A DNA stretch of 64,000 nt, from positions 49,833 to 113,832 of IMG/VR virus record IMGVR_UViG_3300009001_000006; one strand, written 5' to 3'. Both the position numbers and the translations under genes were made by a program. Numbering within the stretch: position 1 is the first letter of the stretch; every line of letters begins with the position of its first letter. Positions 40,947-64,000 of this stretch are shown here, piece by piece. The stretch is from a virus. Under the pieces are notes generated by a model. The model worked only from the letters and a program-made list of their open reading frames with translations, was not told the origin of the DNA and searched no databases.

Positions 40947-40969
40947 GTTTATATATCTCCTTTTTAAAC

Positions 40970-41431
40970 TCAGGTAATGTTAATATCTACTTTAACGTAG
41001 CCGTCGGCATCTTTGCCACTTAAGAATGTACCAACTTTAACACTGTTTGTTGATACTGTGGTGAAATCACCAGCACCATCATAATAAGCAGCGTCTCCAG
41101 CAACTGGACTTTGACCAGAAGCTAGACTGTTGGTAGTAACTTGACCCCTACGAAGAAGAGCCACTTTGCCGCCAGCCTGAACTTCATCTTTATGATAATT
41201 AATATGTTGTCTTGTAAGATCAAGATTAACAACATCATTAAGTAAAACACCTGCTGGAGCAGTGCCAGCTGGACTGCCAGTTGGATAGATAACTACGGCA
41301 TCAGCATCATCCATAGATGAACCAACACCACCTGCACCGTTGTATACAACCACACCGCCGCGATCGCCGGTTGTGTTCATAAAGAAAGATACATCGGTAA
41401 AACTTTCAACACGATCTGGTTTTAAAGCCAT
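40970..41431 (-). CDS. capsid decoration/cement protein
   Basis: Small Gly/Val-rich ORF between scaffold and MCP; PAGVLL, VGTFLSGKDADG. Confidence 0.7.
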   Translation of the reverse strand: MALKPDRVESFTDVSFFMNTTGDRGGVVVYNGAGGVGSSMDDADAVVIYPTGSPAGTAPAGVLLNDVVNLDLTRQHINYHKDEVQAGGKVALLRRGQVTTNSLASGQSPVAGDAAYYDGAGDFTTVSTNSVKVGTFLSGKDADGYVKVDINIT

Positions 41432-41434
41432 TTT

Positions 41435-48787: not shown

Positions 48788-49598
48788 CTTGATTCTTTAG
48801 TACTGATTCCGCATTTAATATAGGTGTATCAAATTCATTATCTTGATATTGGTGTGGTGATTGTAAATCATCTTTAAATTTACTGGTAGCCATCTTTAGA
48901 ATTTCTAACTGGCGGCCTTCTTTTTCTCTGATGTCTTCATCTTCCAGCATCCTAATTAATCCTGTCCAACTGCTTTTGCCATCTTCAATCCTTTTAATTC
49001 TTTGTTCTCTAGTAGCTTTTAAATCTTTACTAATTTTTTGCTGTTCACTTAATAATTTGGTATATTCATTAGTATAGCTAGCGATACTATTTCTAGCAAA
49101 ACTTAATTGTGTTTCAAGATTTGCTAGCTTAGCGGTGTCTCTATCAGATTCTGGCATTTCATACTCAAAGTCTACCTGCCTTTGTAATTTTTCGGTTTCT
49201 GCAATATGTCTTTTACGCTCTTTCATACTTCTGTTAATAAGAATATCTATTGTAATAAACTGTTTAATTTGTAACTCTTCTGCTGGAAGAACATCTTCAC
49301 GAAATTGTTTAATAAGATTAATCCATGTATTTTCGAAATAATCTAATTCGCCAGTCTCTTTATCAAACTGCTTACATACCTCACCCCAAAAAGATTTAGA
49401 TCTAAGTTTAATACTTAAGATTTCATTATCAGCATGCTCTGCTGGTGTTTGCAGCAACTGATTTTTTTCTATGTATTTTTTAATAGGAGCTACATTTCTA
49501 TTTAAACTAACTGCTATATCTTCTATACTTGAAGAATTAGCATTTTCTTTAATGTACTTTTCTTCCTGTAGCGAAAGCTGTCCTCTTTTTTTAGTCAT
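48780..49598 (-). CDS. HTH/coiled-coil protein, candidate terminase small subunit
   Basis: N-terminal SIEDIAVSLNRN HTH, long coiled coil, upstream of TerL. Confidence 0.45.
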   Translation of the reverse strand: MTKKRGQLSLQEEKYIKENANSSSIEDIAVSLNRNVAPIKKYIEKNQLLQTPAEHADNEILSIKLRSKSFWGEVCKQFDKETGELDYFENTWINLIKQFREDVLPAEELQIKQFITIDILINRSMKERKRHIAETEKLQRQVDFEYEMPESDRDTAKLANLETQLSFARNSIASYTNEYTKLLSEQQKISKDLKATREQRIKRIEDGKSSWTGLIRMLEDEDIREKEGRQLEILKMATSKFKDDLQSPHQYQDNEFDTPILNAESVLKNQDE

Positions 49599-50241
49599 TT
49601 TTATATTTGGGTATGAGTTTCTTTTTAATAAAATTCTGTAACTTTACTTTATCGTTTTTTATGACCTTTTGTCCGTGTTTTAATTTTAGGTATGTGCTTC
49701 TGTATTTTACTGGTAAATTTTCTTCTATAAAATCGACTAGTTGCTGGTCTGATATATGATCCACAAAATCTTTAGTATTCGCTGGGTCTATATTGTCTAT
49801 ATAAGATGGTTGAATAATTCCTTTTTTGTTATTATTTCTGTTAAACCAAGATCTATAAGCATGACAGTTGAATTTATCGTTAAACTCTTCACAATCCTTA
49901 CCGTCTTTATTTTTAGGATTATATAATGGGCAAGTTAAGCAAGGTTTGTCTGGACGCTGATAATTATCTCTCTTATAATTAAAAAGCCTATTTCTTACAT
50001 GTGTCCACAAAAAATTCTCTAACGGTCTAGAGTGATCATATTTTTCTAATCCTTCAAGAGCAAAAATCGCTGCTTGTTGCTTCATATCATTAATATCATG
50101 ATAAGCAAACTTGAATTTATAACAGAGTCTTTTGCTTATATTGTCTAAAACAGCTAGAAACTCTTCTTCTGTTACATTTACTTTATTCTGTATTTTCTTC
50201 GTTGTTTTTTTCGTTGTTTTTTTCGGAATTTTCTTCCTCAT
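49591..50241 (-). CDS. phage RNA polymerase sigma factor-like protein
   Basis: Region 2 signature DMKQQAAIFALEGLEKYD..RPLENFLWTHVRNRLFNYKRD; Cys cluster insert; short C-terminus. Confidence 0.75.
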   Translation of the reverse strand: MRKKIPKKTTKKTTKKIQNKVNVTEEEFLAVLDNISKRLCYKFKFAYHDINDMKQQAAIFALEGLEKYDHSRPLENFLWTHVRNRLFNYKRDNYQRPDKPCLTCPLYNPKNKDGKDCEEFNDKFNCHAYRSWFNRNNNKKGIIQPSYIDNIDPANTKDFVDHISDQQLVDFIEENLPVKYRSTYLKLKHGQKVIKNDKVKLQNFIKKKLIPKYKND

Positions 50242-50437: not shown

Positions 50438-50635
50438 ATGTCTAAAACATATAAAAAATGGAGAGAAGAAGATATAGAATTTATTAGAAATAATAGTCCA
50501 TTAATGCCCGATAACGTTGTAGCTATGACATTATCCAAAATTACTGGATATCATATATCTACTGATATGGTAAGAGCACAAAGACGTCGATTAAAAATAG
50601 TAAAAAACAGAGGTAGGCAACCAAAAAGTCCATAG
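50438..50635 (+). CDS. small basic HTH-like DNA-binding protein
   Basis: KKWREEDIEFIR...VRAQRRRLKI; AAGG RBS; divergent from the sigma operon. Confidence 0.7.
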   Translation: MSKTYKKWREEDIEFIRNNSPLMPDNVVAMTLSKITGYHISTDMVRAQRRRLKIVKNRGRQPKSP

Positions 50636-50639
50636 AAAC

Positions 50640-50828
50640 TTATTCGGCGTCACCTACTTGATCAATTACAAATAATTGTGTATTATTAGTTAGTTTGCCA
50701 ATATTATATGTAATATTAGATTGCTGCGGATATATATAATCTTTATTAATTTTAGTATTTTGCGTATCTTTTTTATCTATAAATGTATTAAATCTACTAG
50801 TTAAATTTTTACCGTATAAAATATTCAT
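50640..50828 (-). CDS. small protein, distant member of the IY..YG partner family
   Basis: MNILYGKNLTSRFN versus MNSIYVSYGSRISKSNRNFN. Confidence 0.5.
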   Translation of the reverse strand: MNILYGKNLTSRFNTFIDKKDTQNTKINKDYIYPQQSNITYNIGKLTNNTQLFVIDQVGDAE

Positions 50829-50842
50829 ATCAATACTTGGGT

Positions 50843-51895
50843 TTAGGGTAAGAAAATATCTGAAAGCACAGCTTGTGTATAATTTTTACATACACAATCA
50901 TTAGGATCTCGACTTTGTCCAGATGGGCATGCATTATAACACTTTCCTTTGCATTCTTTCATACCCTGAGGACATACACACTTGCATTTTCCTGCTGGAT
51001 CTGGTACTTTACCTCCACTGCAGCCTTTTTGTAAAAGCTTACATACACACTGACAATTATCAGCATCAAAATCAGGTAATGCTCCATCGCTATAATAATC
51101 ACAATCTAATCCCTGTTTATATAAAACTTCTTCAAAATAGCAATAACAGCTACAAGTAGAGTCTCTCAGACTGGGTTTGTTTGGAGGGCATTTTTTGACG
51201 AATTGTAGATTTACAGATTCTTTATATGCGCATTTACAGCTACAATCCTCTTTGTCAAAATCGGGAGTACTGCCTGTACATGGTTCCTCACTTGCATGTT
51301 TACAATAACATGAGCAATCCTTAGATTTGAAGTGTGGCAACCTTCTATATTTACCTTGACCACATCTAGGTCCGCCAGGTTCGTTAAGTGGACATACACA
51401 TTCACAATCTTGATCTCCGGTTTTGTTGCCGGCTAAGTCTGTAGTCCATGTTATTTTTAGTTTAGGACGACTAGGGTCCTCAGCTTTACAGTCGTAACCA
51501 ACATCACAGCCACAATTACATGGTTGAATAACCACCTTCATATCATCTCCGCAAGGATTTATATCAGGATTTTTTTTCATTTGATAAATATAGGTACAAC
51601 CACAACCACAGAATTCAGACATAAAATGTGGATACTCAGGTTTATCGCATGGTCCAATCTTAGTAGGGTCACATTCACAACCGCAAGGGGCTTTCCAATG
51701 AGGTGTACCAGATTTTCCAGTAACAGGATCTATATTTCTAGATTTACATAAATATACATTCTTATCATAATCAATCGCTGTACATCCACAGCACTTACCA
51801 CCATAACCCTTTTGCCACGGATCTAAAGAAGATCCATCAGGATCTTGATCTGGTCTGGGACATGGGCAATTACTATTACAACATTCAGCGGCCAT
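50843..51895 (-). CDS. Cys-rich CxCxC repeat protein
   Basis: Repeats PDFDKEDCSCKC, PSLRDSTCSCYC, PDFDADNCQCVC; ends YTQAVLSDIFLP. Confidence 0.85.
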   Translation of the reverse strand: MAAECCNSNCPCPRPDQDPDGSSLDPWQKGYGGKCCGCTAIDYDKNVYLCKSRNIDPVTGKSGTPHWKAPCGCECDPTKIGPCDKPEYPHFMSEFCGCGCTYIYQMKKNPDINPCGDDMKVVIQPCNCGCDVGYDCKAEDPSRPKLKITWTTDLAGNKTGDQDCECVCPLNEPGGPRCGQGKYRRLPHFKSKDCSCYCKHASEEPCTGSTPDFDKEDCSCKCAYKESVNLQFVKKCPPNKPSLRDSTCSCYCYFEEVLYKQGLDCDYYSDGALPDFDADNCQCVCKLLQKGCSGGKVPDPAGKCKCVCPQGMKECKGKCYNACPSGQSRDPNDCVCKNYTQAVLSDIFLP

Positions 51896-51897
51896 AA

Positions 51898-53028
51898 TTA
51901 CACCTTATTAGGAAAACGTTTAAATTTTAAGCCCGTAACAATAGGGTTGTGCATATCTTGCAAAAGATTAAAGTCAATAGTAATATAGTTATCAGATGTG
52001 TAAATATTATCATTCATATGAAAATAAAATTTCGTATCAACATCTATATTATTACCAGAAGATAAACATATAATATCATTAATTACAAACTCTGTTTCAT
52101 TAATTTCAACACCGGTGAGATCATAATCATAGTCAAGATAAATAGATTGTGGTAATGTAATATAATCTTGACCATCTTTTTCTGCGTATACATATACATT
52201 ATTATAAACCGGATAATATCTTTGTAATGTTGAGACAATATTAGCAATACTATAATCATCATTAATAGTGATATTAGCGCCAGATCCTGTTTGCCCTAAA
52301 TATACTACCTGTGGAGCTACCGTAATATCGGTCATATCATTAAATAAACTCACTGATAAAATTTCACCAGTATCACTATTTATTTGTTCTACTGTCAGCA
52401 AAGCTTGTCCGGTGCTACCAGCTGATATAATATTGAATGTGTCTCCAACCTGATAATTGCTGCCACCAGTAATTGATATTGTATTATCGTTAATAGTTAA
52501 ACTTACTTGTATATACTCTTTATCAAAGTCGTTAGTAGATTCATTTAAGCAAGATAAATAAAATAAACTATTTAGTTTATAACCTTGCTGAATAACGGCA
52601 AAACCACTATCAAGTATACCAATAGGTTTTGCGTAATAAGTTAAATTATCCGAATCTATTATATTATCACCGGTAAAAATACCATTTGAGATAATTTCAG
52701 TATTGTGTAGTGTGGTATTATATTTGACTAAAAAAGATTCTTGTTGAAATTGGTATGTATTTTCAGGAAAGGAATCATTTGTGATATATATATAAGGTGA
52801 TTGAGAATTGATGTTATCAATAACTAAAGAGTTAGAAGAAAGAGATAAAAGTACCATAAATTCTGGCTTACTGCCTTGATAATATTTATCAACCTCTAAA
52901 TAAATATCTTTATAAACCTTTTGGGAAGTATCAATACTATCGCATATGCTATTATATAATGGAAAACCTTGTAATGTTAATGGTTCTCTATAATTTTGTG
53001 TAATTTCGTAAATATTGTGAATAGCCAT
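51898..53028 (-). CDS. putative virion protein with baseplate-wedge-like GGxxY repeats
   Basis: ITGGSNYQVGDTF...GEILSVSL...GSGANI. Confidence 0.5.
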   Translation of the reverse strand: MAIHNIYEITQNYREPLTLQGFPLYNSICDSIDTSQKVYKDIYLEVDKYYQGSKPEFMVLLSLSSNSLVIDNINSQSPYIYITNDSFPENTYQFQQESFLVKYNTTLHNTEIISNGIFTGDNIIDSDNLTYYAKPIGILDSGFAVIQQGYKLNSLFYLSCLNESTNDFDKEYIQVSLTINDNTISITGGSNYQVGDTFNIISAGSTGQALLTVEQINSDTGEILSVSLFNDMTDITVAPQVVYLGQTGSGANITINDDYSIANIVSTLQRYYPVYNNVYVYAEKDGQDYITLPQSIYLDYDYDLTGVEINETEFVINDIICLSSGNNIDVDTKFYFHMNDNIYTSDNYITIDFNLLQDMHNPIVTGLKFKRFPNKV

Positions 53029-53076
53029 ATTTAAAAACTCTCTGTATGCAGCATATAAATGATTTGACTCTGGGTT

Positions 53077-54264
<1,188 letters not shown>

Positions 54265-54304
54265 ATCTTGCGCCTTTGTGTTTAGTTAATAACATATATA
54301 TTAT

Positions 54305-54312
54305 TATACACC
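54305..54312 (-). promoter_or_regulatory. putative late promoter motif GGTGTATA
   Basis: 41 nt upstream of the start at 54264, just after a terminator. Confidence 0.65.
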
Positions 54313-54319
54313 AACATCC

Positions 54320-54351
54320 AAAAAAAAAGCACCCGCTTTCGAGGGTGCTTC
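54320..54351 (-). terminator. intrinsic terminator
   Basis: Minus strand GAAGCACCCTC-GAAA-GCGGGTGC-T9. Confidence 0.9.
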
Positions 54352-54379
54352 AAGAAATAATTCTATTTATAAAAATAGA

Positions 54380-54982
54380 TCAATCTTCGTTATCTAGGTC
54401 CTCGTCATTTTCTGGAACTGGCTGATTAGCAAGTAATTTTCTAGACTTTTTAATAGCTCGGTTAACCATAACCTTGCCAACCATCTTTACGAATGGTAGT
54501 CCTCTATTCTTGGCTTCTTGATCAAGCCAACCTACAACAGTATCAATATTTTGTTCACACCAATCGTTACCTTTTTCATTCATATTAATAGCGTGGCGAC
54601 GACAAGAGCAGCTATCGCTCATATGAATACCAAGACTTTTAATCATTTTACTAAGTTGAGTTCCTGGTCCATGCGGATCTTCTTCCATAGTTTTTGGAAA
54701 AAGACTTCTTAAGAACTTGTCTGGGTGATCACCCATCAAAACTCTCAACCTATCTTCTAGCTGAGATTTAGTCCAATCTCCAAGTTCTTCATAACTAGCA
54801 GCACTATATAGCTGTACCGGCAATGGAATTTGATCAATTTGAACGCTGATAGTTTTGTGTGTAGGATCATCCATATAAACAACTTTTAACGTATCAGTAA
54901 CAATAGGGTCTGGCGTAGTAACATTACCAGCGTTGTCTGAATATGGAGGAGGCTGAACTGTAATTTTCTGATTTAATTTCAT
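54380..54982 (-). CDS. hypothetical protein with GPGT...CSC...WC motif
   Basis: Has its own sigma70 promoter and terminator; AGGA RBS. Confidence 0.8.
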   Translation of the reverse strand: MKLNQKITVQPPPYSDNAGNVTTPDPIVTDTLKVVYMDDPTHKTISVQIDQIPLPVQLYSAASYEELGDWTKSQLEDRLRVLMGDHPDKFLRSLFPKTMEEDPHGPGTQLSKMIKSLGIHMSDSCSCRRHAINMNEKGNDWCEQNIDTVVGWLDQEAKNRGLPFVKMVGKVMVNRAIKKSRKLLANQPVPENDEDLDNED

Positions 54983-55031
54983 AGTAATTTTCCTTTGTTC
55001 CTATAGAAAGCGGGTTAAAACGCGTTAATAT

Positions 55032-55059
55032 ATAATAACGGTCAAAAATCCGATGTCAA
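55032..55059 (-). promoter_or_regulatory. sigma70-type promoter
   Basis: TTGACA-16nt-TATTAT on the minus strand. Confidence 0.6.
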
Positions 55060-55081
55060 GCAAAAAATAATATCGCAATAA

Positions 55082-55921
55082 TTATGGCACAATAGTGCTT
55101 TGTAATATATTTTGAGAATATGAGCTACAAGGATTTCCATCATTATCATATGCGTCTGGGTCAGGTACGCAAATTCCTAAATCACACTTTTCACATTCAC
55201 CACAAGCGGCTCCGGGCATACATCTCCCAAATTCACATTTAGCGCAGTCTAGTAATAGAGGATTACAACCAGGAACACATTTACCAGTGATGGATGATGT
55301 ATAATAACATTTTAAAGGATCTATGCAACTACCATCACAACAGTAAGTTTTGTCACCCTCTGTGCATAAAAATGTATTTGGGTTTTGACCATTGGTGCAA
55401 AAAGCTACATCGTTATTGCATTCTAAACACTGCTCTTGAAGAGTTGGACCGGGGCCTGGCAGATCATCACATGAATAAGTACCAAGACCACTGCTGTTAC
55501 ATATATAACACGGTCCACATAACTGACAGCCAACGCTCATGATCTCTTTACAAGTTGGCTGTAAAAAAGCATTTAATCCAGGAGCATGAATAGAACAAGG
55601 ATTAAGATAATCTGCGTGATACCATTTCCCTCTCAAGCAAGACACACAAGCATTATCAGGATGAATATCTCCATCTAAACAAGCTGGATTCCATGTGCCT
55701 GGACCTCCAATACTTGCTATGTTTACAAGACCAGACAAAGCTCCAGAACTAGCTGTTAAACCTAGTATAGAACCTGTTTGTCTAGCATCACTAGCAGGAA
55801 CCTCATTACCTATAACACCCCTAACATTAGGATCATTATTAATAATAGGCTCATCTGGTATCTGATTCACAGGTACCTGTGGTACGATTTTTGATCCATT
55901 TATAATAACAGGTCTATTCAT
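55082..55921 (-). CDS. Cys-rich protein
   Basis: Many CxxC/CxxCxxC motifs; ends YSQNILQSTIVP. Confidence 0.85.
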   Translation of the reverse strand: MNRPVIINGSKIVPQVPVNQIPDEPIINNDPNVRGVIGNEVPASDARQTGSILGLTASSGALSGLVNIASIGGPGTWNPACLDGDIHPDNACVSCLRGKWYHADYLNPCSIHAPGLNAFLQPTCKEIMSVGCQLCGPCYICNSSGLGTYSCDDLPGPGPTLQEQCLECNNDVAFCTNGQNPNTFLCTEGDKTYCCDGSCIDPLKCYYTSSITGKCVPGCNPLLLDCAKCEFGRCMPGAACGECEKCDLGICVPDPDAYDNDGNPCSSYSQNILQSTIVP

Positions 55922-55930
55922 ATTATTAAT

Positions 55931-56800
55931 CTAAGGTATTAAGTTAATAGAAAGTGCATCTGCATCGTAAACACAAGAACAAGTATCAGCATCAAATTTA
56001 CTATCTTCATTTTGTTCTTTGCATTTATCTTCATTTAGGTTACAAACACATGTACAATCAGCCAAACCATTGAAGACCCTATTCAATACTTCTGGCTGAT
56101 CTTGTGGACATTCTGTTTGGCCAGCAGGAGTAAATAAAGGAGGTTCAGATCCGTAATTGCGAAATTTACACTCACACCTACCGCTTTTTTCAAGAGGATT
56201 ATCTGGATTATTATAAAATAAGTCTATTACACAAACAGTAACTGCGCTACACTGACTTACACAAATTTTTCTTTTATGACTAGCATCCTCCCACTCACAC
56301 TCTTCGCAATTTTTAATGCAGTCGGTACCGCAATTATCTGGTATGCACTTTCCTTTAGAGTTGCATTCATAACCCTCTCCGCATTTGTCTACCCATTTAT
56401 CCCCCCCAGGACTTTGTGGATCTGCTACGCACTTTACGCAAGGATCTGGTACTGGCAATGGATTCCCAGGGATATTGATCAATGGGGCCGTTTTACTCAC
56501 CCATTTTCTGACAGAACGAGGTTTCGCATCGGGCTTGCCTACTGCTTTCTCTGTACAATCTTTGCAGGGTTTTTCTATATTTTTGATGATCTTTCTCTGA
56601 TTTTTCCTATCCCATTCACAAGTGCTGCAGGGAAAGAGATTATTGTGGTGTATCCAACTTGATGCGGGAACCTGCTGACCACGTATATTTAAAAAATACG
56701 ATTCGCAAGATTCACACTCCCATTGCGTTAAAGGTGCGCATTTGAGATAAGGATTATCACTAACAATAATAGGTGGTCCTGTTCTTGATTCTGTGCCCAT
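55931..56800 (-). CDS. Cys-rich protein
   Basis: CxxC and CxCxC (KFDADTCSCVY); ends YDADALSINLIP; AGGAG RBS. Confidence 0.85.
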   Translation of the reverse strand: MGTESRTGPPIIVSDNPYLKCAPLTQWECESCESYFLNIRGQQVPASSWIHHNNLFPCSTCEWDRKNQRKIIKNIEKPCKDCTEKAVGKPDAKPRSVRKWVSKTAPLINIPGNPLPVPDPCVKCVADPQSPGGDKWVDKCGEGYECNSKGKCIPDNCGTDCIKNCEECEWEDASHKRKICVSQCSAVTVCVIDLFYNNPDNPLEKSGRCECKFRNYGSEPPLFTPAGQTECPQDQPEVLNRVFNGLADCTCVCNLNEDKCKEQNEDSKFDADTCSCVYDADALSINLIP

Positions 56801-56823
56801 TATATTAAAACTCCTATGTTTTA

Positions 56824-57165
56824 TTAATTGCTATAAGCTGTGGCTAGCCTATAATTGCTTACTACTTCTTCTGATAAAAGTTTAGAAAAAATATGGGGGA
56901 AAGCAAAACCATCGTCACGAACCTGGTCTTTGAGCATAAAACATACACCATAATTCATGTTATAAAAACTATCTCTATAGGAATCTGGAGGAGGTAGGTA
57001 TGTTAAACTATCTCTATAGCCATCATAGTATCTATACGCTCGATTATTCTTATATGTCTTTGGTAAAGAATCTTGAGCATTATAGGTGTTTCGACAATTA
57101 AAGTTCATTCCTGCTCTATCATTTTTCTTGATATATCCACCATATCTATAATAAATCATATACAA
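56824..57165 (-). CDS. small partner protein (113 aa), paralogue of 58228-58569
   Basis: IYYRYG..IKKNDR..NFN...DSLP..Y...YRLATAY. Confidence 0.75.
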   Translation of the reverse strand: MYMIYYRYGGYIKKNDRAGMNFNCRNTYNAQDSLPKTYKNNRAYRYYDGYRDSLTYLPPPDSYRDSFYNMNYGVCFMLKDQVRDDGFAFPHIFSKLLSEEVVSNYRLATAYSN

Positions 57166-57173
57166 CTTTCTTA

Positions 57174-57215
57174 TTAATGTTTAAAGGCATTTATTATTAT
57201 TGGTCTATTATTCAT
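57174..57215 (-). pseudogene. 13-codon remnant (MNNRPIIINAFKH*) of the 55082-55921 N-terminus
   Basis: Matches MNRPVIING and sits in the equivalent position, right after a Cys-rich gene. Confidence 0.6.
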
Positions 57216-57229
57216 TCATTTAAATATAT

Positions 57230-58225
57230 TTATGGTAATAGAGATAGTCCTAAACTGCTCTTAGGAGTATAGCAGCCGCCACTACCGTCGCAAACTGCTG
57301 GAGGTATGCAAATATCTACACAGCCCCAATTGCCAGGAGATTTTTCTCTACATTCTTGACAACTGCTTGTAACCTCTAATGCACCAAATGACTGAGAATT
57401 AGGTGTACAATCAGCACACATAGGCACACATTTACATTTATCAGGATCAAGCTTTGTCTGACCAAAGCAAGTAACAGTACATTCGCAACCCTTACAATTA
57501 GCCTTAAGACTAGGCTCTGCTTCGGTACACATTTGATATCCGTCTATCAGTTGTGTCATTGATATTCCTGCTGGATTATAAGGCAAAAACATACAAACAC
57601 AATTACCCTTAGTTCCTGTAGTAGGATTTCCACCTACACAAATATTATTGTCTAAATTTCTACATATATTTTTGCATTTTTTTCTTCTGCCTACTTTTGT
57701 ACACTCTTCACATACTCCGCAAGGAGTGTCGCAACAAACACATCTAGGCATCTTGGGGTTGCTAGTATCACATTCACAATTAGATGCACCAGGATTTTGA
57801 GCTGCGCAATCCTGCCAAACCTCTCTGGGGTTAGGAAAAAGAAATAGTACACACTTATCGCAAGGACTGCCCGGAGAAGGTTTATCTATTATTTTTTTAT
57901 CTGACCAAATATACGATATGCCATATTTTGTTTGTAGAGTTTTTCTTTCACCTGGTATGCATTTCTTACAAGGTTCGTCGAATTCGGTTGTAACCTGTAA
58001 TGGCAACATACCATCAGGAGCAGCTACAACTTCACACTCTTCGCATCTTTGTTGGTCAGAAAAACTTTTAAAAACATAAGTAGCGGAACCTCGCTGCATT
58101 AACTTGAAGCAAGTACCGCAATTACCTTCCTCACCTGCACTCATACAATAACCATTATTTACCTCACAACCATATTGAACCCCATCTCTTGGTCCACCTG
58201 GTGGCACTCTACTTACACATGGCAT
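57230..58225 (-). CDS. Cys-rich protein, paralogue of 55931-56800
   Basis: PCKKC, PCDKCV, CEEC...KKCKNIC, GNCVC, KLDPDKCKCV; ends YTPKSSLGLSLLP. Confidence 0.85.
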   Translation of the reverse strand: MPCVSRVPPGGPRDGVQYGCEVNNGYCMSAGEEGNCGTCFKLMQRGSATYVFKSFSDQQRCEECEVVAAPDGMLPLQVTTEFDEPCKKCIPGERKTLQTKYGISYIWSDKKIIDKPSPGSPCDKCVLFLFPNPREVWQDCAAQNPGASNCECDTSNPKMPRCVCCDTPCGVCEECTKVGRRKKCKNICRNLDNNICVGGNPTTGTKGNCVCMFLPYNPAGISMTQLIDGYQMCTEAEPSLKANCKGCECTVTCFGQTKLDPDKCKCVPMCADCTPNSQSFGALEVTSSCQECREKSPGNWGCVDICIPPAVCDGSGGCYTPKSSLGLSLLP

Positions 58226-58227
58226 AA

Positions 58228-58569
58228 TTATCTTCCTCCTTTATATACAGCTGTTAGTCTACTATGTCCTACGGCACTACCACTATGTGGACTAACAACC
58301 GGAGGAAAACTAATCATATGAGGTTTGTTTTTATCTATTAGGTGATTTCTTGTTAGTCCCGAAGTAAAATTTATATGGTCACTAGGAACTTGGTCAACAT
58401 AATCAGGAAAACTATTATCATTACTATATTGATCTGGTAAGCTAGAATCAATTTCAGGATATAAAACATCACCATCATCATTTTCGGCAAATGTTTCGTT
58501 TGAGGCAAAATTGAAATTTCTATTAGATTTAGAAATTCTTGAGCCATAAGATACGTATATACTATTCAT
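58228..58569 (-). CDS. small partner protein (113 aa)
   Basis: IYVSYG.RISKSNRNFN...SSLPDQY...HSRLTAVY. Confidence 0.75.
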   Translation of the reverse strand: MNSIYVSYGSRISKSNRNFNFASNETFAENDDGDVLYPEIDSSLPDQYSNDNSFPDYVDQVPSDHINFTSGLTRNHLIDKNKPHMISFPPVVSPHSGSAVGHSRLTAVYKGGR

Positions 58570-58615
58570 AATAAGCCTGTAGTTTGTGGTTGTGTTCTGC
58601 TTTGTCTATTATAGG

Positions 58616-58623
58616 TATACACT
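58616..58623 (-). promoter_or_regulatory. putative late promoter motif AGTGTATA heading the Cys-rich array
   Basis: 47 nt upstream of the start at 58569. Confidence 0.6.
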
Positions 58624-58645
58624 ATTTTTATACAAAAGGGCGTTG

Positions 58646-60103
58646 ATGATGACTAAGCAAATATTAACTATGGACCAGGTGGAAAAATATGAAAAAATCT
58701 ATTTTGGGTCAAAAGAAAAGATTAGTGGGATTTACGGAATTGTTTTTTATAGAAATGATGTTAATGGTGTGAAAATTTATATTGGAAATAGTATTGATAT
58801 TATAGCTAGATGTAAAGAACATGTTAGGAATTTGACTGGTACTTCTGGACGGAAAATTAATAAAACTTCGAAAAAGTTAATACAGTGTTATAAGAATAAA
58901 AATTATAAGATGGTTTTTGTGGTATTGGAACGATGTAATGAAAATGTGGTCATGAGCAAAGAACGTGAATATCAGCATAAGTGGGTGAAGCGGAATTTAT
59001 TAAATAATTGGGTGGCATCTAATATAGATGAAATTAAGCCATGGTTAGATAAATGTATTAAAAGTAAAGCCTATACAAAACATTTTAAATATAGTGAAAA
59101 GAATTTTTATAATGGTACTCCTTGTAAGGAAAGTCTTAGTGTAAGTTCAGGCGGATATGCTAGAATTCAGGTTCGTATTAATAGCAAAGACAAACATATA
59201 TTTAAGCATAGAGCAGCTTATTACGAAAAGCACAATGAATATCCAGAATTAGTTCGTCATTTATGTAATAATAGATGTTGTTATAATCCTGATCATTTAA
59301 CATCTGGAAATTATAGTGAAAATAGTTTAGATAAAAGAGGGGATTTTCCAGAAAGATTTGAAAAAGATTGGGTGAGGCTGGAAGGTGACGCAGATAAGTT
59401 AACAACATTATATGGATGGAAAAGAAATTGTACACGAAAAGGGGTTCGCATATCAGCGACAGTTTATCGATGGGAAAAGAAATTAGGATTAAGAGATAAT
59501 TATCCTGATATTTACTATAACAAAAGAGCTATGCGAACAAAGTTGTGGAGAAGAAAAGATATACAGGAATTTATACAGAATTGTGGGGATAAGTATGGAA
59601 ACAGTAATGTAAAAATAGCTAAGGCATTAAATACGGAATATGGATTAGAACTAACACCTCGGCAATTAAGCCAAATGAAAAATAAGATGAAGGGCAAATC
59701 AAGAAATAGAAAAAGAGTAAAGAATGCGGATCTGACAGGGGCGACTAGTGTGATAAAAGAATACTATCAGTCAAAGACAGATGAAGAAATTAAAGATATA
59801 TGCAATGCCAAATTAGGTACTTCATATCAAACGGGCACAATAAGAGCAATGAGATTTGATTTAAGTTTATATAAGCCTCAAATGATTCAAGACAAGGTGG
59901 GGGATTTATACAGAAGAGATGCTGTATCTAGGTGGGGGATAGAGGCGGAAAAGTTAGTGGAATATTTTGGGGAAGAGTATTCAGATGGGGAATTAGCAAA
60001 GATATGTAATAGGGAGTATGGGGAAGATATGGGGTTTGATGAGGGGGTGATTCAAGAACTAAGGCAGCTAGTAGGATCTGGGGATACTGTGGGGCAAACT
60101 TGA
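58646..60103 (+). CDS. GIY-YIG plus HNH dual-domain homing endonuclease-like protein
   Basis: SGIYGI...KIYIGNS..I.AR...H...E...E (GIY-YIG) and HRAAY...VRHLCNNRCCYNPDHL..GNYSEN (HNH). An ATG start at ~58646 is preferred. Confidence 0.85.
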   Translation: MMTKQILTMDQVEKYEKIYFGSKEKISGIYGIVFYRNDVNGVKIYIGNSIDIIARCKEHVRNLTGTSGRKINKTSKKLIQCYKNKNYKMVFVVLERCNENVVMSKEREYQHKWVKRNLLNNWVASNIDEIKPWLDKCIKSKAYTKHFKYSEKNFYNGTPCKESLSVSSGGYARIQVRINSKDKHIFKHRAAYYEKHNEYPELVRHLCNNRCCYNPDHLTSGNYSENSLDKRGDFPERFEKDWVRLEGDADKLTTLYGWKRNCTRKGVRISATVYRWEKKLGLRDNYPDIYYNKRAMRTKLWRRKDIQEFIQNCGDKYGNSNVKIAKALNTEYGLELTPRQLSQMKNKMKGKSRNRKRVKNADLTGATSVIKEYYQSKTDEEIKDICNAKLGTSYQTGTIRAMRFDLSLYKPQMIQDKVGDLYRRDAVSRWGIEAEKLVEYFGEEYSDGELAKICNREYGEDMGFDEGVIQELRQLVGSGDTVGQT

Positions 60104-60226
60104 TAGTTTAGGTATTACATTTTATATAGATAGTGCTTACTATTTTTGGACCACCCGCCCTTTTTCAGAGCAGCGAACACATACCCAAGCAAAACAAAAA
60201 AACCCCCCTATGTAGGTAGGTATATA

Positions 60227-60428
60227 TGTAAGGTATTGATAGATATAGACTTGCGTGTATGTCTGCCGACCGGCCCCCTCTTTGGTGGGGTAATAAAAGA
60301 AAAAACTTTTGGCATGATATTTGCACTAGAAAAAAATAAAAAAATTTTTCAGAAAGTACTTGACACCTGACGATACTAGGTATATACTTGAGACATAACA
60401 AGTAACCAAGAAAGAAAAGGAAAAAGAC
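60227..60428 (+). repeat. composite intergenic cassette 1
   Basis: 11-7-11 palindrome 60227-60255; CCCC-N8-GGGG 60275-60290; sigma54 motif 60309-60325 (+); TTGACA-17-TATACT 60360-60388; purine-rich leader. Confidence 0.8.
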
Positions 60429-60620
60429 ATGAAAAAGCTCATCCCCTACTTCGAAGCAAACGGCGTTCGGTACACTATCCTCAATAAGATGCGAATCTTT
60501 CTTTCGCAGAACAATCAAGTTCTTGCTGTTCAATCAGCAGATACCTTTCCTGCTAAGGTTTCACAAGATCCACTCTTGGTCCGCTTTTGGCAGAACGAAC
60601 TGAATCGAGAATATGCTTGA
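60429..60620 (+). CDS. small early-type hypothetical protein
   Basis: AAGGA RBS after the cassette 1 promoter. Confidence 0.75.
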   Translation: MKKLIPYFEANGVRYTILNKMRIFLSQNNQVLAVQSADTFPAKVSQDPLLVRFWQNELNREYA

Positions 60621-60666
60621 CCCCATATTGGAGTAGATCTATCCCCCAAAAGAATTGCTAGCCAAA

Positions 60667-60901
60667 GGTAAGTGCTTGGTAAATAAAGACTTACAAGCGA
60701 TTCGACCGGCCGGCCCCCTCTGTGGTGGGGGTGTACAAGTGTTCCACTAGCAAACGCTGTGCCAAACGAGAGCAAAATGCCAGAAAGTTTTGTCAAATTT
60801 TCTTGACATAAAAATTCCAAAATTATTGTTGACGACTAAAGATTGCTTTGGTATAATGTCGATATAAGGAATAAGGAAAAGAAAACTAAGGAGAAATAAA
60901 A
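60667..60901 (+). repeat. composite intergenic cassette 2
   Basis: Palindrome 60667-60695; CCGGCCGG; CCCC-N8-GGGG; sigma54 motif 60749-60765 (-); TGTCAA-N6-TTGACA; TTGACG-17-TATAAT 60829-60857; AAGGAG. Confidence 0.9.
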
Positions 60902-61048
60902 ATGGAAATGCAAATCCTCTACATTTCAGATTGCTGCGGTTCATATCTTGACGATTGCCATATCGAATATGGTATCTGCAACGATTGCGGTGAGCATTGT
61001 GAAGTGCTGACCGAAGAATATCCTGCTACCCCCGTTTGTGGGGGTTGA
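60902..61048 (+). CDS. 48-aa Zn-finger-like protein (SDCC...ICxxCGEHC), not in the ORF track
   Basis: MEMQILYISDCCGSYLDDCHIEYGICNDCGEHCEVLTEEYPATPVCGG*; AAGGAG RBS; paralogue of 62715-62921. Confidence 0.85.
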   Translation: MEMQILYISDCCGSYLDDCHIEYGICNDCGEHCEVLTEEYPATPVCGG

Positions 61049-61072
61049 CAACACAAAAAAATTTGCTAGACT
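61030..61072 (+). promoter_or_regulatory. mini-cassette: CCCC-N8-GGGG fused to a sigma70 promoter
   Basis: CCCCGTTTGTGGGGG then TTGACA-16-TAGACT. Confidence 0.7.
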
Positions 61073-61096
61073 TTGGATAACTAAGGAGAAAACAAA

Positions 61097-61276
61097 ATGA
61101 CGATTTACCCAAGTATGAACGACTACCGCAAGTATTTCAACACCATGACAACCGATCTTCTTTCGGTATGGGTTGAGGTTGCAGAACATAAACTGCCGAA
61201 CTATACTAGGATCGAGGAGGTCGAAACCGTAAAGGCCGCTCTAATCGTAGCCCGTCAAGTATTGTCCACCCGATAG
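61097..61276 (+). CDS. 59-aa protein (LSVWVEVAEHKLPNY family), not in the ORF track
   Basis: AAGGAG RBS; paralogue of 62059-62256. Confidence 0.85.
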   Translation: MTIYPSMNDYRKYFNTMTTDLLSVWVEVAEHKLPNYTRIEEVETVKAALIVARQVLSTR

Positions 61277-61288
61277 GAAACCGAAAGA

Positions 61289-61579
61289 ATGAATACTGAA
61301 AAACTCATGCAACAATACCCGATTCTCACTGACGCTTGGAATCAGTGTACCCTAATCTGGAAAGGTGTTGAGCAGAACGGAACGGTTCACAAGTTCAATC
61401 GAAAAGAATTGAGAAAAATTGTAAAGGCTAACCGTCGGTCGGTCGATAAGAGACTGGTGGGCGGGAATGACCACATGATTGAAAAGGTAGGAAAGCCTGG
61501 CTCCCCCGAAAGAGTGGTTGCGTTGGCTGCCCAATATGCTAGACTGAGTGAAAGCGAATCGTCACCCTTTGGAGAATGA
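61289..61579 (+). CDS. hypothetical protein
   Basis: AGGA RBS; co-oriented with its neighbours. Confidence 0.75.
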   Translation: MNTEKLMQQYPILTDAWNQCTLIWKGVEQNGTVHKFNRKELRKIVKANRRSVDKRLVGGNDHMIEKVGKPGSPERVVALAAQYARLSESESSPFGE

Positions 61580-61583
61580 TAGA

Positions 61584-61820
61584 ATGACAACCTACGAAAA
61601 AATGACAACGCGAGAACTTGACGCTTGGATCCGGGAAGGCGGGAAAGACTTGAGCGATAATGCTCAAACGTACACCCCAGCAAAGTATAGGCTGGTGGCC
61701 CATATGGTACGCTCTGCCGTTCGTGAGAGGCTGCGACGACTTCGCCATGCCGACTGGCTGGAGAAGGAATACGCTTGGGAAACTGAACGGGCGATCAGGG
61801 GTGGTACAGGGTGGAGTTGA
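61584..61820 (+). CDS. hypothetical protein (MTTYEKMTTRELDAW...)
   Basis: ATG at 61584 after GGAG; ends just before cassette 3. Confidence 0.7.
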   Translation: MTTYEKMTTRELDAWIREGGKDLSDNAQTYTPAKYRLVAHMVRSAVRERLRRLRHADWLEKEYAWETERAIRGGTGWS

Positions 61821-61841
61821 TCCCTCATTAGGGTGGGCGTT

Positions 61842-62058
61842 CGTAAGTTGTTGCTACGTAAGGACTTACGGCCTGCCCGGCCGGCCGAACCCCACTTGCG
61901 AGGGGTATTAGCAAATGCCGTGCCAAAAGCACACAAAATACCAGAAAGTTTTGTCAAATTTTCTTGACATAAAAATGCAGAAAAATCTCTTGACAATTCA
62001 AGTTTCGTATGGTAGAATGTCGATATAAGAAGTAAGAGAGAAAGAAAGAGAGAAAAAA
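61842..62058 (+). repeat. composite intergenic cassette 3
   Basis: Palindrome CGTAAGTTGTT-GCTACGT-AAGGACTTACG 61842-61870; CCCGGCCGGCCG; CCCC-N8-GGGG; sigma54 motif 61910-61926 (-); block near-identical to cassette 2; TTGACA-17-TAGAAT 61990-62018. Confidence 0.9.
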
Positions 62059-62256
62059 ATGACAACGCTACAAGCACAATACAACAGTCTTCAAGAGCAA
62101 TTCCACAAGATGAGCAATGAAATGCTCTCAGTGTGGATTGAAGTAGCAGAACACAAACTGCCAAACTATCGCCGAACCGAAGAGATGCTGTCGGTTCTCA
62201 ATGGCATCCACGCTGCCAAGAGTGTTCAACGCTATCGAGAAAATAATTGGGAGTGA
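62059..62256 (+). CDS. 65-aa protein (LSVWIEVAEHKLPNY family)
   Basis: First gene after the cassette 3 promoter. Confidence 0.85.
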   Translation: MTTLQAQYNSLQEQFHKMSNEMLSVWIEVAEHKLPNYRRTEEMLSVLNGIHAAKSVQRYRENNWE

Positions 62257-62257
62257 T

Positions 62258-62300
62258 CCCCCAGCGGCGGGGTTGACAAACAGAAAATCTTTGGTATAAT
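62258..62300 (+). promoter_or_regulatory. mini-cassette: C-tract/G-tract box fused to a sigma70 promoter
   Basis: CCCCCAGCGGCGGGG then TTGACA-16-TATAAT (62273-62300) with extended TG. Confidence 0.75.
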
Positions 62301-62319
62301 GTCTGAAAAGAAAGAGAGA

Positions 62320-62520
62320 ATGAGAATGAGAAAGCCTAGTTTCAAGACCGTTGAGAAGAATCTGGTACAGTATGCTAGAAAGATGGATTGCGAAATCGTC
62401 AAACACCACGACGGTTCCTATTCACTGTACGATCGTAAAATGGATTATGTATCCATTACCAAAGCAACTCGACAGCGTGTTGCAAACGAAGTTTACTATT
62501 GGATGAGTGCTAGTAAGTAA
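62320..62520 (+). CDS. hypothetical protein
   Basis: Start downstream of the -10 box (ATG at 62320 or 62326). Confidence 0.7.
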   Translation: MRMRKPSFKTVEKNLVQYARKMDCEIVKHHDGSYSLYDRKMDYVSITKATRQRVANEVYYWMSASK

Positions 62521-62541
62521 GTAAGAGAGAGAGTGAAAGAG

Positions 62542-62718
62542 ATGAGTAAGTATCAAATGTTCAGTACCTATCGTCGCTATGCTGGCGGTTATTTTGAATG
62601 CTACAAGAAAGATGAGTATCTTGGCAACGTGTACGCTAGTACAGAGAAGGCTGCAAGGTATAAAGCCTTCAAGTTGTTTGGTGTTTGGTGCAATGTTTAT
62701 TGGCAAGATGGAGAATGA
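62542..62718 (+). CDS. hypothetical protein
   Basis: MSKYQMFSTY...YLGNVYASTEKAARYKAFKLFG. Confidence 0.7.
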   Translation: MSKYQMFSTYRRYAGGYFECYKKDEYLGNVYASTEKAARYKAFKLFGVWCNVYWQDGE

Positions 62719-62921
62719 AAATGGGAATGATGATTCAAAGCGACTGTTGCAACGAGCCAATGAGTGGCTCACAAATTGACCACGAAATTTGCCCAAAGTG
62801 TGGCGAACACTGCACCGTGGTGTTTGATCGTAGCGAAGAACGAATTGTTAGTTTTGCCCAACAGCGTCGTGCTGAACGGCTTAGGAAATGGAGCAAGAAT
62901 GAAAATGAAAACAGGCTATAA
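62715..62921 (+). CDS. Zn-finger-like protein (SDCC...ICPKCGEHC)
   Basis: ATGA overlap with the previous gene; paralogue of 60902-61048. Confidence 0.8.
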   Translation: MKMGMMIQSDCCNEPMSGSQIDHEICPKCGEHCTVVFDRSEERIVSFAQQRRAERLRKWSKNENENRL

Positions 62922-63129
62922 TAATTTTGAAGAAGCAATGATTTCTATGCTAACAAAAAAACAAAAAGAAAAACTATTAGATATAGCAAGGAATACTAAT
63001 ATAGGTACGGAATACTCAGAACAGTTTGGGGGAATAGCATTAGCCTGTTTGGCTGGAAAGATTGAAAAAAGTTTGACAGGTAAGAATGGAACAAACTGGT
63101 TTGAAGTTCTTTCGGAGAATAGAAAATGA
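62899..63129 (+). CDS. hypothetical protein
   Basis: GGAG RBS before MKMKTGYNNF. Confidence 0.6.
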   Translation: MKMKTGYNNFEEAMISMLTKKQKEKLLDIARNTNIGTEYSEQFGGIALACLAGKIEKSLTGKNGTNWFEVLSENRK

Positions 63130-63215
63130 AAAGTAAACTTAACAATGACGGCCTGGCTGTTATGCTCTTTCTTATGGTGTGTGTTGTGGTAATATTTATA
63201 GAAAGATTGGTGTAA
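63126..63215 (+). CDS. 29-aa single-TM peptide
   Basis: MKSKLNNDGLAVMLFLMVCVVVIFIERLV*; ATGA overlap; GGAG upstream. Confidence 0.55.
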   Translation: MKSKLNNDGLAVMLFLMVCVVVIFIERLV

Positions 63216-63222
63216 GGAATAG

Positions 63223-63398
63223 CCCCCTCTTTGGTGGGGCCCGGCCGGCCGAGTCGGCCATAAGTCCTTACGCCCCAACGACTTACGATCGCAGAGCAAA
63301 TGCTGTGCCAAAAAAGAAAATAATTTTTTCTAGATTTTTCTCTTGACATTCAAGTTTGCTGTGGTAGAATTCCGATATAGAAAGTAAGGAGAACAAAA
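63223..63398 (+). repeat. composite intergenic cassette 4 (left part inverted relative to cassette 3)
   Basis: CCCC-N8-GGGG, CCCGGCCGGCCG, palindrome 63259-63287 in reverse orientation, sigma54 motif 63295-63311 (-), TTGACA-16-TAGAAT 63343-63370, AAGGAG. Confidence 0.9.
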
Positions 63399-63704
63399 AT
63401 GAAAGCACACAACCCACGAATCATTTGCCGCGACGGCTTCTCAATCAGTGTTCAGGCCCGTGAGACTGCATACTGCACACCACGAAGCGACCACGGCCCA
63501 TACTCGCATGTAGAGTGTGGATACCCTAGCGAGGTTCCAAAAAGTTGGAGATTCCGGGAATTCTCGGAAGCCGCCCAATTTGGCAAGGGTTAGCCAAAGG
63601 ATGAAGAATACACCGACACGGTATATCCGTATGTTCCTGTTCATCTGGTTCGGCATGAGTTGGATCTGCACGGTGGAATTGTTGAAGGAAGGTTGCCAGA
63701 ATAG
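63399..63704 (+). pseudogene. conserved small phage gene (DGFSISVQA...TVYPYVP...HGG) interrupted by an in-frame TAG at 63591-63593
   Basis: The frame continues past the TAG as PKDEEYTDTVYPYVPVHLVRHELDLHGGIVEGRLPE*. Confidence 0.7.
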
Positions 63705-63715
63705 GAGAGATTGAA

Positions 63716-63865
63716 ATGGCTTGTATACAGACTATTTATGAAATTCGGATTCGTGATCCGCTCAGTGGTGACGAGCGAGTGATTAGTAATGGAACTTGTT
63801 TCCCTGTCACGACAGAGTGGCAATGGTTGATTGATGCCGGTTTTGCGGTTTGGTACTATGTTTAG
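63716..63865 (+). CDS. 49-aa hypothetical protein
   Basis: AGGAG RBS; MACIQTIYEIRIRDPLSGDERV... Confidence 0.65.
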   Translation: MACIQTIYEIRIRDPLSGDERVISNGTCFPVTTEWQWLIDAGFAVWYYV

Positions 63866-63877
63866 GGGGATTGTAAT

Positions 63878-64000
63878 ATGACAACGCAAGAATTGAAAAA
63901 CTATGTTCGCTCAGGCCGATACGCTTGGCCCGGAGGATACCCGAAGTATTTTGTAATGAACGACGGCGAGGCCATGAGTTTCGACGCTGTACAAGAAAAC
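63878..64000 (+). CDS. hypothetical phage protein (YAWPGGYP motif), 3' truncated
   Basis: MTTQELKNYVRSGRYAWPGGYPKYFVMNDG...; GGGGG RBS. Confidence 0.7.
   Translation, partial: MTTQELKNYVRSGRYAWPGGYPKYFVMNDGEAMSFDAVQEN

Follow-up and report, generated by a model that had tools for sequence, protein, structure and literature searches.

What are the repeated sequences between the small genes at the right end of the virus record IMGVR_UViG_3300009001_000006 there for: do they move genes, or do they express them? The window analyzed here is the terminal 64 kb (64,000 nucleotides, positions 49,833 to 113,832) of this 113,832-bp IMG/VR record (linear class, estimated to be about 79% complete), so that the end of the window is the end of the contig. 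The cassette region occupies the final 4 kb or so of the window, where all of the small genes are rightward and where six intergenic sequences, which we call U1 to U4, p1 and p2, carry recurring sets of parts. An earlier note made from the window's sequence had interpreted such units as a recombinase-driven gene-cassette array or shufflon. We favor, with a probability of roughly 60%, the reading that all six are copies of a composite terminator/insulator-plus-promoter cassette that punctuates a rightward early region, and that the genes around them change by general recombination. In this reading promoter activity, termination and use of the boxes are deduced from sequence.

Six cassettes within 3.2 kb

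Four homologous intergenic units, U1 (60200–60431), U2 (60621–60904), U3 (61821–62061) and U4 (63216–63401), stand where the earlier note had described repeated composite units, and all of the parts it listed are present. Common to the four are a GC box of the CCGGCCGG type, a C-run/G-run stem-loop, a TGGCAY-N5-TTGC box that resembles the sigma54 –24/–12 element, and a sigma70 promoter of the TTGACA/TGnTAnAAT type. Units U2–U4 have a dyad, GTAAGTnnTT-N7-AAnnACTTAC, which is the imperfect palindrome of the earlier note but is 27 bp long (10-7-10) rather than the proposed 29 bp; in U1 this dyad is degenerate, the right part of the unit is different, and the GC box is shortened to GACCGGCC. The promoter in U2–U4 is followed by a start region, CGATATAAG (CGATATAGA in U4), and a purine-rich leader; the CGATA motif that had been noticed near the promoters is real and belongs to this larger conserved start region. 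Two further cassettes, p1 and p2, are minimal, consisting of a hairpin and a promoter, and in each of them the C/G stem-loop abuts the –35 hexamer. Below, L-type stands for a box that has a dyad, a C/G hairpin or a TGCCA palindrome behind it, and R-type for a box with a sigma70 –35 hexamer 26–40 nt further on. The features are, from left to right (a strand is given for those with a direction):

60228–60254: U1 degenerate 27-bp dyad (GTAAGG...GACTTGC), which aligns with the dyads of U2–U4
60265–60290: U1 GC box GCCGACCGGCC and C-run/G-run stem-loop CCCCCTCTTTGGTGGGG
60310–60324, plus strand: U1 sigma54-type box, R-type (sense), 35 nt ahead of the –35 hexamer
60360–60388, plus strand: U1 sigma70 promoter TTGACA-17-TATACT (11/12), ahead of gene A (60429–60620)
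60668–60694: U2 27-bp dyad GTAAGTGCTT-N7-AAAGACTTAC
60704–60731: U2 GC box GACCGGCCGG and stem-loop CCCCCTCTGTGGTGGGGG
60750–60764, minus strand: U2 sigma54-type box, L-type (antisense), aimed into the hairpin/dyad module
60782–60808: U2 22-bp operator-like dyad AGAAAGTTTTGTCAAATTTTCT and orphan TTGACA, in a 36-nt repeat with U3
60829–60868, plus strand: U2 sigma70 promoter TTGACG-17-TGgTATAAT and start region CGATATAAG, ahead of genes B, C, D and E
61029–61072, plus strand: p1 stem-loop CCCCCGTTTGTGGGGG over the final codons of gene B, abutting TTGACA-16-TAGACT
61843–61869: U3 27-bp dyad GTAAGTTGTT-N7-AAGGACTTAC
61876–61905: U3 GC box CCCGGCCGGCCG and stem-loop CCCCACTTGCGAGGGG
61911–61925, minus strand: U3 sigma54-type box, L-type (antisense)
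61943–61969: U3 operator-like dyad and orphan TTGACA
61990–62029, plus strand: U3 sigma70 promoter TTGACA-17-TGgTAGAAT and CGATATAAG, ahead of gene C'
62258–62300, plus strand: p2 stem-loop CCCCCAGCGGCGGGG abutting TTGACA-16-TGgTATAAT (12/12), ahead of genes F, G, B', H and I
63223–63251: U4 stem-loop CCCCCTCTTTGGTGGGG and GC box CCCGGCCGGCCG, the module being inverted relative to U1–U3
63260–63286: U4 27-bp dyad, in the place canonical for the family, 9 nt downstream of the L-type box
63296–63310, minus strand: U4 sigma54-type box, L-type (antisense)
63343–63381, plus strand: U4 sigma70 promoter TTGACA-16-TGgTAGAAT and CGATATAGA, ahead of gene J and later genes

These parts are clustered and are not background scatter. 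Pattern searches were run over all 113,832 bp of the source contig (G000), and the TGGCAY-N5-TTGC box, the CCGGCCGG-type boxes, the C4-N-G4 hairpins and the promoter with CGATA were found only at 60.2–63.4 kb of the window. The box occurs four times in the window against 0.36 expected from shuffled sequences, none of which reached four, and the dyad pattern TAAG-N3-TT-N7-AA-N3-CTTA occurs three times against 0.02 expected; the units are homologous, so their copies are not independent events. The six sigma70-type promoters score 10–12 out of 12, and all are on the plus strand, each ahead of a gene block; five of the six have the TG extension, and they are followed by what are, by sequence match, purine-rich leaders. 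Stem-loops of the C4–5/G4–5 type are present in all six cassettes.

The left module (dyad, GC box and hairpin, about 70 bp) has in U4 the orientation opposite to that in U1–U3, and the sigma54-type box is on the plus strand in U1 and on the minus strand in U2–U4. The operator-like dyad that U2 and U3 have in addition lies within a 36-nt exact direct repeat common to the two units, and an 18-nt stretch at 60273–60290 (the final G of the GC box and the hairpin) is identical in U1 and U4. A second, upstream sigma70 promoter in U2 and U3 was considered and rejected, since the orphan TTGACA there has no –10 hexamer at 16–18 nt.

Each full cassette starts immediately behind the stop codon of the last gene before it, first with a module that is orientation-free (the dyad GTAAGT-N15-ACTTAC, the GC palindrome and the stem-loop), continues with a single sigma54-type box that is directed backward into the module (U2–U4) or forward (U1), and ends with a near-consensus extended –10 sigma70 promoter, its start region and a purine-rich Shine-Dalgarno leader. 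The host sigma70 RNA polymerase would fire the cassette promoters immediately upon infection, and the stem-loops would attenuate read-through from one gene block into the next. Host sigma54 polymerase on the boxes might add a second layer of control, either activator-dependent or occlusive, and the dyad would be a protein-binding site, perhaps an operator or an enhancer, rather than an RNA hairpin. The backward boxes may serve in antisense transcription to shut off the upstream operon, or may bind closed complexes that act as insulators. Genes would be exchanged by general recombination between the repeated cassettes and at leader/ATG junctions, a process in which a phage RecA-like protein may help.

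Pattern scans of IMG/VR gave three close relatives, G001 (89–95% identical), G002 and G003, and about 25 more distant contigs with the same parts; L086–L089 are loci added by a metagenome scan. Family counts given below refer to 28 related loci (246 kb), and four of the relatives, G005–G008, are complete or nearly so (94–100% complete, 150–205 kb).

Several observations weigh against the cassette reading. A simple role as promoters does not account for three of the four sigma54-type boxes here, as these are directed against the genes, and the sigma54 activator domain PF00158 is absent from the source contig and from G005–G008. In folding, the left modules are not better than shuffled sequence (z from +0.2 to –2.0), and they have no U-tract, so their function as terminators is uncertain. 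Finally, the breakpoints at start codons described below could reflect selection on illegitimate events and not cassette-guided exchange.

The sigma54-type boxes, the dyads and the stem-loops

Promoters read by sigma54 have the –24/–12 consensus YTGGCACGr-N3-TTGCW, in which the GG and GC doublets are 10 bp apart. There are 137 boxes in the related loci (94 with TGGCAC and 43 with TGGCAT), and a reversed-sequence control gave no exact match. Among one-mismatch variants the GG is always unchanged, the GC is rarely changed, and the spacing is invariant. The positions left free in the pattern (TT before the box, R-R after CAY, T before TTGC, and T/A after it) also match the sigma54 consensus, and since they were not used in the search, this match counts for the sigma54 reading. 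In G005–G008, 27 of the 29 boxes lie within a single stretch of 2.4–4.7 kb per genome. Orientation follows class without exception: L-type boxes are antisense (34 of 34) and R-type boxes are sense (23 of 23).

A third class of box stands directly ahead of genes, in the arrangement TGGCACGGTAGTTGC-tctatatata-GATATAAG...ATG. At canonical spacing the predicted start from these boxes would be no more than about 2 nt from the predicted sigma70 start, in the same GATATAAG leader. In G002 a third-class box is found ahead of gene B (97% identical to gene B here), as a sigma54-type promoter where the source contig has U2. The U1 box is in tandem with a sigma70 promoter, and the gene-proximal copies in relatives are likewise at promoter distance. 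We also considered these gene-proximal boxes as sigma70 promoters, with TTGGCA as the –35 hexamer, and rejected this for the poor spacing to any TATA-like hexamer. From these features we infer that the boxes are bound by the host sigma54 polymerase. No account of a phage early region that is built on such boxes came up in our search of the literature.

With no PF00158 activator gene in the source contig or the four relatives, the TGGCAY-N5-TTGC boxes might instead be sites for a phage DNA-binding protein, or DNA-architectural elements, whose likeness to the –24/–12 element is convergent. Many of the boxes are in divergent or convergent pairs and so form long inverted repeats; in some distant relatives a downstream palindrome, CTGCCATTTTGGCAG, reuses the TGGCA word; and conserved small proteins of no assigned function border the cluster together with an AT-hook/Myb-like protein, all of which is in keeping with such a role. 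We nevertheless consider it unlikely, in view of the agreement with the consensus at positions that played no part in finding the boxes, the constant spacing and least variable GG and GC, the placement of the sense copies at promoter distance from a common leader, and the one sense copy that takes the place of a sigma70 promoter ahead of gene B in G002.

The dyad is consistently 27 bp long across the family. Family dyads are often paired exactly 53 bp apart (about five helical turns) around a 26-nt GC-rich spacer that is itself symmetric, and the antisense box is 9 or 13–14 nt from the proximal dyad. Unit U4 has the canonical family order, while in U2 and U3 and in their G001 homologues the module is inverted. 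The inverted module of U4 relative to its neighbors is also found in G003, and these shared states in G003 (U4) and G001 (U2 and U3) indicate that module orientation is fixed and is not switching; the inversion in U2 and U3 is, on this sequence comparison, old and fixed. As the main reading of the dyad, an RNA hairpin was tried and rejected, since the variable columns of its stem pair no more than their composition predicts (0.36 at position 7 and 0.44 at position 8, where 0.42 and 0.47 would be expected). An Rfam scan of 59900–64000 with E values up to 1 gave no match. With no excess of pairing, folding at the level of shuffled sequence and no Rfam family, we take the dyad to be a site that a protein recognizes by its sequence. 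In the C/G hairpins and the GC spacer, on the other hand, the symmetry is kept while the sequence changes, and so these look structural.

These data also bear on the possibility that the antisense box and the dyad/GC/hairpin module together make up a small RNA (sRNA) gene, from which a sigma54-dependent antisense RNA of about 70–80 nt would start at the first base of the dyad and silence or process the 3' end of the upstream operon. The box-to-dyad distance of 9–14 nt does put the predicted start within about 3 nt of that base, and in 24 of the 26 asymmetric dyads, by manual count, the antisense strand would form two G-U wobbles where the sense strand would have A-C mismatches; the persistence of symmetry in the changing GC spacer can be taken in the same sense. 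Such an sRNA seems quite improbable to us, however, as the pairing, folding and Rfam results just given all speak against it, no terminator is evident behind the module, and, as the module in U2 and U3 is turned the other way with respect to the box, the RNA would differ between units. The 24:2 bias itself may come from one inherited variant and a fixed orientation of the unit.

Gene exchange around the cassettes

That these are repeated regulatory cassettes in a plastic early region, as the earlier note proposed, is borne out by the gene content between and around the units, which varies among relatives. Breakpoints were mapped against G001, G002, G003 and L087, and they lie at start codons, three codons into a gene, in leaders, at the end of the p1 hairpin and between sub-modules; none is in a dyad. 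Junctions at an ATG are seen for genes E/Y (gene E is swapped for gene Y in relatives, exactly at the ATG), for G and the next gene, for I and for B, and gene G is swapped for gene X at a point three codons into the gene. Gene G has its own promoter cassette in G003, whereas here it is directly behind gene F with the junction in the purine-rich leader; conversely, there is a promoter cassette ahead of gene D in G001, G002 and G003 and none there in the source contig. An extra gene (169 amino acids) comes after gene B in G002, and the junction there is where the p1 hairpin ends. Both G003 and L087 have hybrid cassettes that are joined between the left module and the box: L087 has a U1-type left module with a U2/U3-type right part, as well as a p2-type cassette that is bordered by different genes on both sides, and G003 has an alternative left module and also combinations. 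These comparisons show relatives that differ in gene content through what appears to be ordinary (general) recombination around the cassettes and at leader/ATG junctions.

Six tandem C-run/G-run stem-loops in about 200 bp, followed by GCAAAATGC repeats, are present in G002 (L070:6060-6270), upstream of gene B's sigma54-type promoter.

The shufflon of the earlier note would be a site-specific cassette array in which the 10-7-10 dyads are cores for a tyrosine recombinase (of the phage, or host Xer) that excises, inserts or inverts gene blocks. Tyrosine-recombinase cores (dif/pdif for XerCD, loxP, FRT and the shufflon sfx sites) have imperfect inverted arms of about 10–11 bp around a center of 6–8 bp, and the dyad, with its two arms of about 10 bp around 7 bp, has just this geometry; the left module is, moreover, found in both orientations, and relatives do differ in gene content. 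In the known systems, however, partner sites share the crossover region, whereas the dyad centers here (GGTAAAT, GCTACGT and ACGCCCC) all differ, and across the family the commonest 7-bp center is present in only 5 of 153 distinct 27-mers, which argues against strand exchange between dyads. A search for a tyrosine recombinase, which the earlier note had suggested, found no Phage_integrase domain (PF00589) in the source contig; this domain, Resolvase (PF00239) and Y1_Tnp (PF01797) are absent from G000 and G005–G008, and the first two are absent from G003 as well; the host might nonetheless supply such an enzyme. In the comparison of gene order the content is variable, gene orientation is fixed (all genes keep one strand) and no breakpoint is within a dyad. 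Module orientation is identical in close relatives (74–95% identity), and the dyad arms are kept even in distant relatives along with the neighboring box, at a fixed distance (9 or 13–14 nt) and with the fixed 53-bp pairing, which is the behavior of a regulatory element. A recombinase-driven array is thus very unlikely, and the case is a caution for annotation, in that not every 10-7-10 palindrome is a recombinase site.

Least probable of all, to the point that we set it aside, is that the left modules are mobile miniature palindromes (REP/BIME- or MITE-like) that spread into intergenic gaps and have no regulatory role: they do occur in either orientation, stacked or swapped between units (with the alternative module and combinations in G003), and at operon 3' ends as REP elements do, but no Y1 (RAYT-type) transposase is present in the five genomes, and the modules are confined to a single region instead of being genome-wide and keep a fixed spacing to the box.

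The phage, its early genes and comparable systems

The small early genes include paralogues, as had been noticed from the sequence: C and C' are 43% identical (E 2e-17) and B and B' are 41% identical (E 8e-9). No meaningful match to Pfam or PHROG was obtained for the small early proteins, which the earlier note had taken as candidates for host takeover and anti-defence. One of the genes is a hallmark of the region in this phage family:

61289–61579, plus strand: gene D, 96 amino acids, present in 22 of the 28 related loci

A set of 5.8 billion proteins contains, at E ≤ 1e-5, 2125 clusters related to protein D, none with a known domain, and protein D has no Pfam domain either. Its structure prediction from a 19-sequence alignment (pLDDT 65, pTM 0.27) was too poor for a fold search, and the ESM Atlas had nothing for it. 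The label "tRNA G37 N-methylase TrmD" on several JGI copies of protein D is apparently an annotation error. Gene J (63399–63704) is interrupted by an in-frame TAG at 63591–63593; its G003 homologue (L071:8997-9302, 101 amino acids) has Tyr at this site and is 97% identical over the 36 codons behind the stop. The likely cause is a nonsense mutation of recent date, a variant in the assembly or a stop codon that is read through.

The cassette region has a G+C content of 43–44%, compared to about 28–42% (mostly 33–39%) in the remainder of the window. Virion genes are in the left part of the window on the minus strand and include an open reading frame of 4356 codons, the size of a tape-measure gene. 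The nearest matches of the large terminase are from Bacillus and Clostridium siphoviruses at 22–29% identity (the closest, at 27%, from Bacillus). The source is, on this sequence evidence, an uncultured large tailed phage that is siphovirus-like and unrelated to the T4-type lineage. It encodes a RecA-like recombinase and a PD-(D/E)XK nuclease (L074:6495-7502 and L074:12022-13041, or 40495–41502 and 46022–47041 of the genome), whose genes adjoin those for DnaB, primase and a class II ribonucleotide reductase. A BLASTN search of cultured phage records with the cassette region found no match, and no tRNA genes are present in the window.

One GTDB genome, G004 (L075 and L083; "MAG: bacterium WB4_3_0875", a metagenome-assembled genome (MAG) of 1.8 Mb), includes contigs of a related phage: contig C90 has a large terminase 71% identical to ours, and a contig of 141 kb has a GuaC-like gene with 62% identity, so this bin seems to contain phage DNA. 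The best genome match of our GuaC-like gene is this same MAG that holds the phage contigs, and no sigma54 DNA-binding domain was found there. The sole remaining hint of a host is a 2.8-kb MAG contig labelled Methylophilaceae that carries a homologue of protein D.

To the left of U1, about 9.6 kb (50640–60222) separate this unit from a small AT-hook/Myb-like gene (50438–50635). This block has minus-strand genes for Cys-rich proteins and, at 58646–60103, a gene for a GIY-YIG-like endonuclease of 485 amino acids with a weak HNH_3 match. In L087 and G002 the AT-hook/Myb-like gene is followed directly by the cassette region, and homology to G001 begins at 60223; as L087 and G002 are without the intervening block, 50640–60222 looks like a second plastic site. 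At 49591–50241 (minus strand), divergent from the early region, is a gene for a putative sigma70-family factor (Sigma70_r2, E 5e-5, 23.4 bits, just below the 24-bit cut-off), which is kept in 15 of the 28 related loci and, with the AT-hook/Myb-like gene, borders the cassette region in relatives. The contigs G000, G001, G002 and G003 all stop inside or just past the cassette region, each at a different point, probably as repeats and strain-level mosaicism break the assemblies.

The promoter-early stem-loops (PeSLs) of T4-type myoviruses are repeated intergenic cassettes in a hyperplastic region of small ORFans. Their parts are arranged in the order stop codon, stem-loop rich in G/C runs, sigma70-consensus early promoter, Shine-Dalgarno sequence and start codon, and among T4-type relatives insertions, deletions and replacements are bordered by PeSLs, with general recombination as the means of exchange (Arbiol et al. 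2010, PMC2839356; Comeau et al. 2014, PMC4122927). The comparison with PeSLs made in the earlier note is apt, as here too there are repeated promoter/stem-loop cassettes with genes exchanged around them: the six are repeated in a plastic region, mostly upstream of small ORFans, p1 and p2 have the layout with a C/G stem-loop abutting the –35 hexamer that is given in PMC2839356, the order of sigma70-consensus promoter, Shine-Dalgarno sequence and start codon is the same by sequence match, and close relatives differ by swaps of genes and promoters around the cassettes. There are also differences. The source phage is not T4-like, as its terminase and its tape-measure-size gene indicate; beyond the PeSL parts, the full units have a sigma54-type box, a sequence-specific dyad of 27 bp and a GC palindrome, to which U2 and U3 add an operator-like dyad, none of which has been described for PeSLs; and many of the junctions are at an ATG or in a leader and not inside a cassette. 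Given a terminase nearest to those of Bacillus and Clostridium siphoviruses, the cassette would work like a PeSL without being an element of the T4 lineage. The cassette principle itself is known, and what is new is that cassettes like PeSLs are here combined with sigma54-type boxes and with a dyad that is conserved. To our knowledge, PeSL-type cassettes have so far been described for T4-like myoviruses.

Bacterial sigma54 (RpoN) promoters use enhancer-binding activators whose sites are 80–150 bp upstream, and intragenic and antisense sigma54 sites have been seen in chromatin immunoprecipitation studies of enterobacteria; a share of chromosomal sites is reported to be antisense or paired. The TGGCAC-N5-TTGC boxes agree with such promoters in their invariant GG and GC and fitting flanks and in the promoter distance between sense copies and leader, and many of the phage boxes are likewise antisense or paired. 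They differ in being in a phage early region, in a single cluster of 2.4–4.7 kb per genome, in that no AAA+ activator is encoded in the phage genomes examined, and in that the paired dyads are just downstream of the antisense boxes and not 80–150 bp upstream. An activator might come from the host, and the dyads could then be where it binds.

It is possible, and we suggest it tentatively, that the boxes, together with the paired GTAAGT dyads, make up a control region, conserved and bidirectional, that is read by the host sigma54 polymerase and is common to a very large family of uncultured environmental phages with genomes of 110–205 kb; protein D by itself accounts for more than 2000 clusters. 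Part of the early programme, and the shut-off of neighboring operons, would then be wired to an enhancer-dependent host sigma factor, either through an activator that is not recognizable as AAA+ or through stable closed complexes that act as insulators, and sigma70 and sigma54 cassettes would be interchangeable ahead of the same genes.

An evolutionary device of the PeSL type is thus now seen in environmental phages of a lineage that is unrelated to the T4-like one and apparently very abundant. If the host sigma54 polymerase does read the boxes, these phages would control genes by an unusual route, and infection would be tied to host signalling in a way that can be tested.

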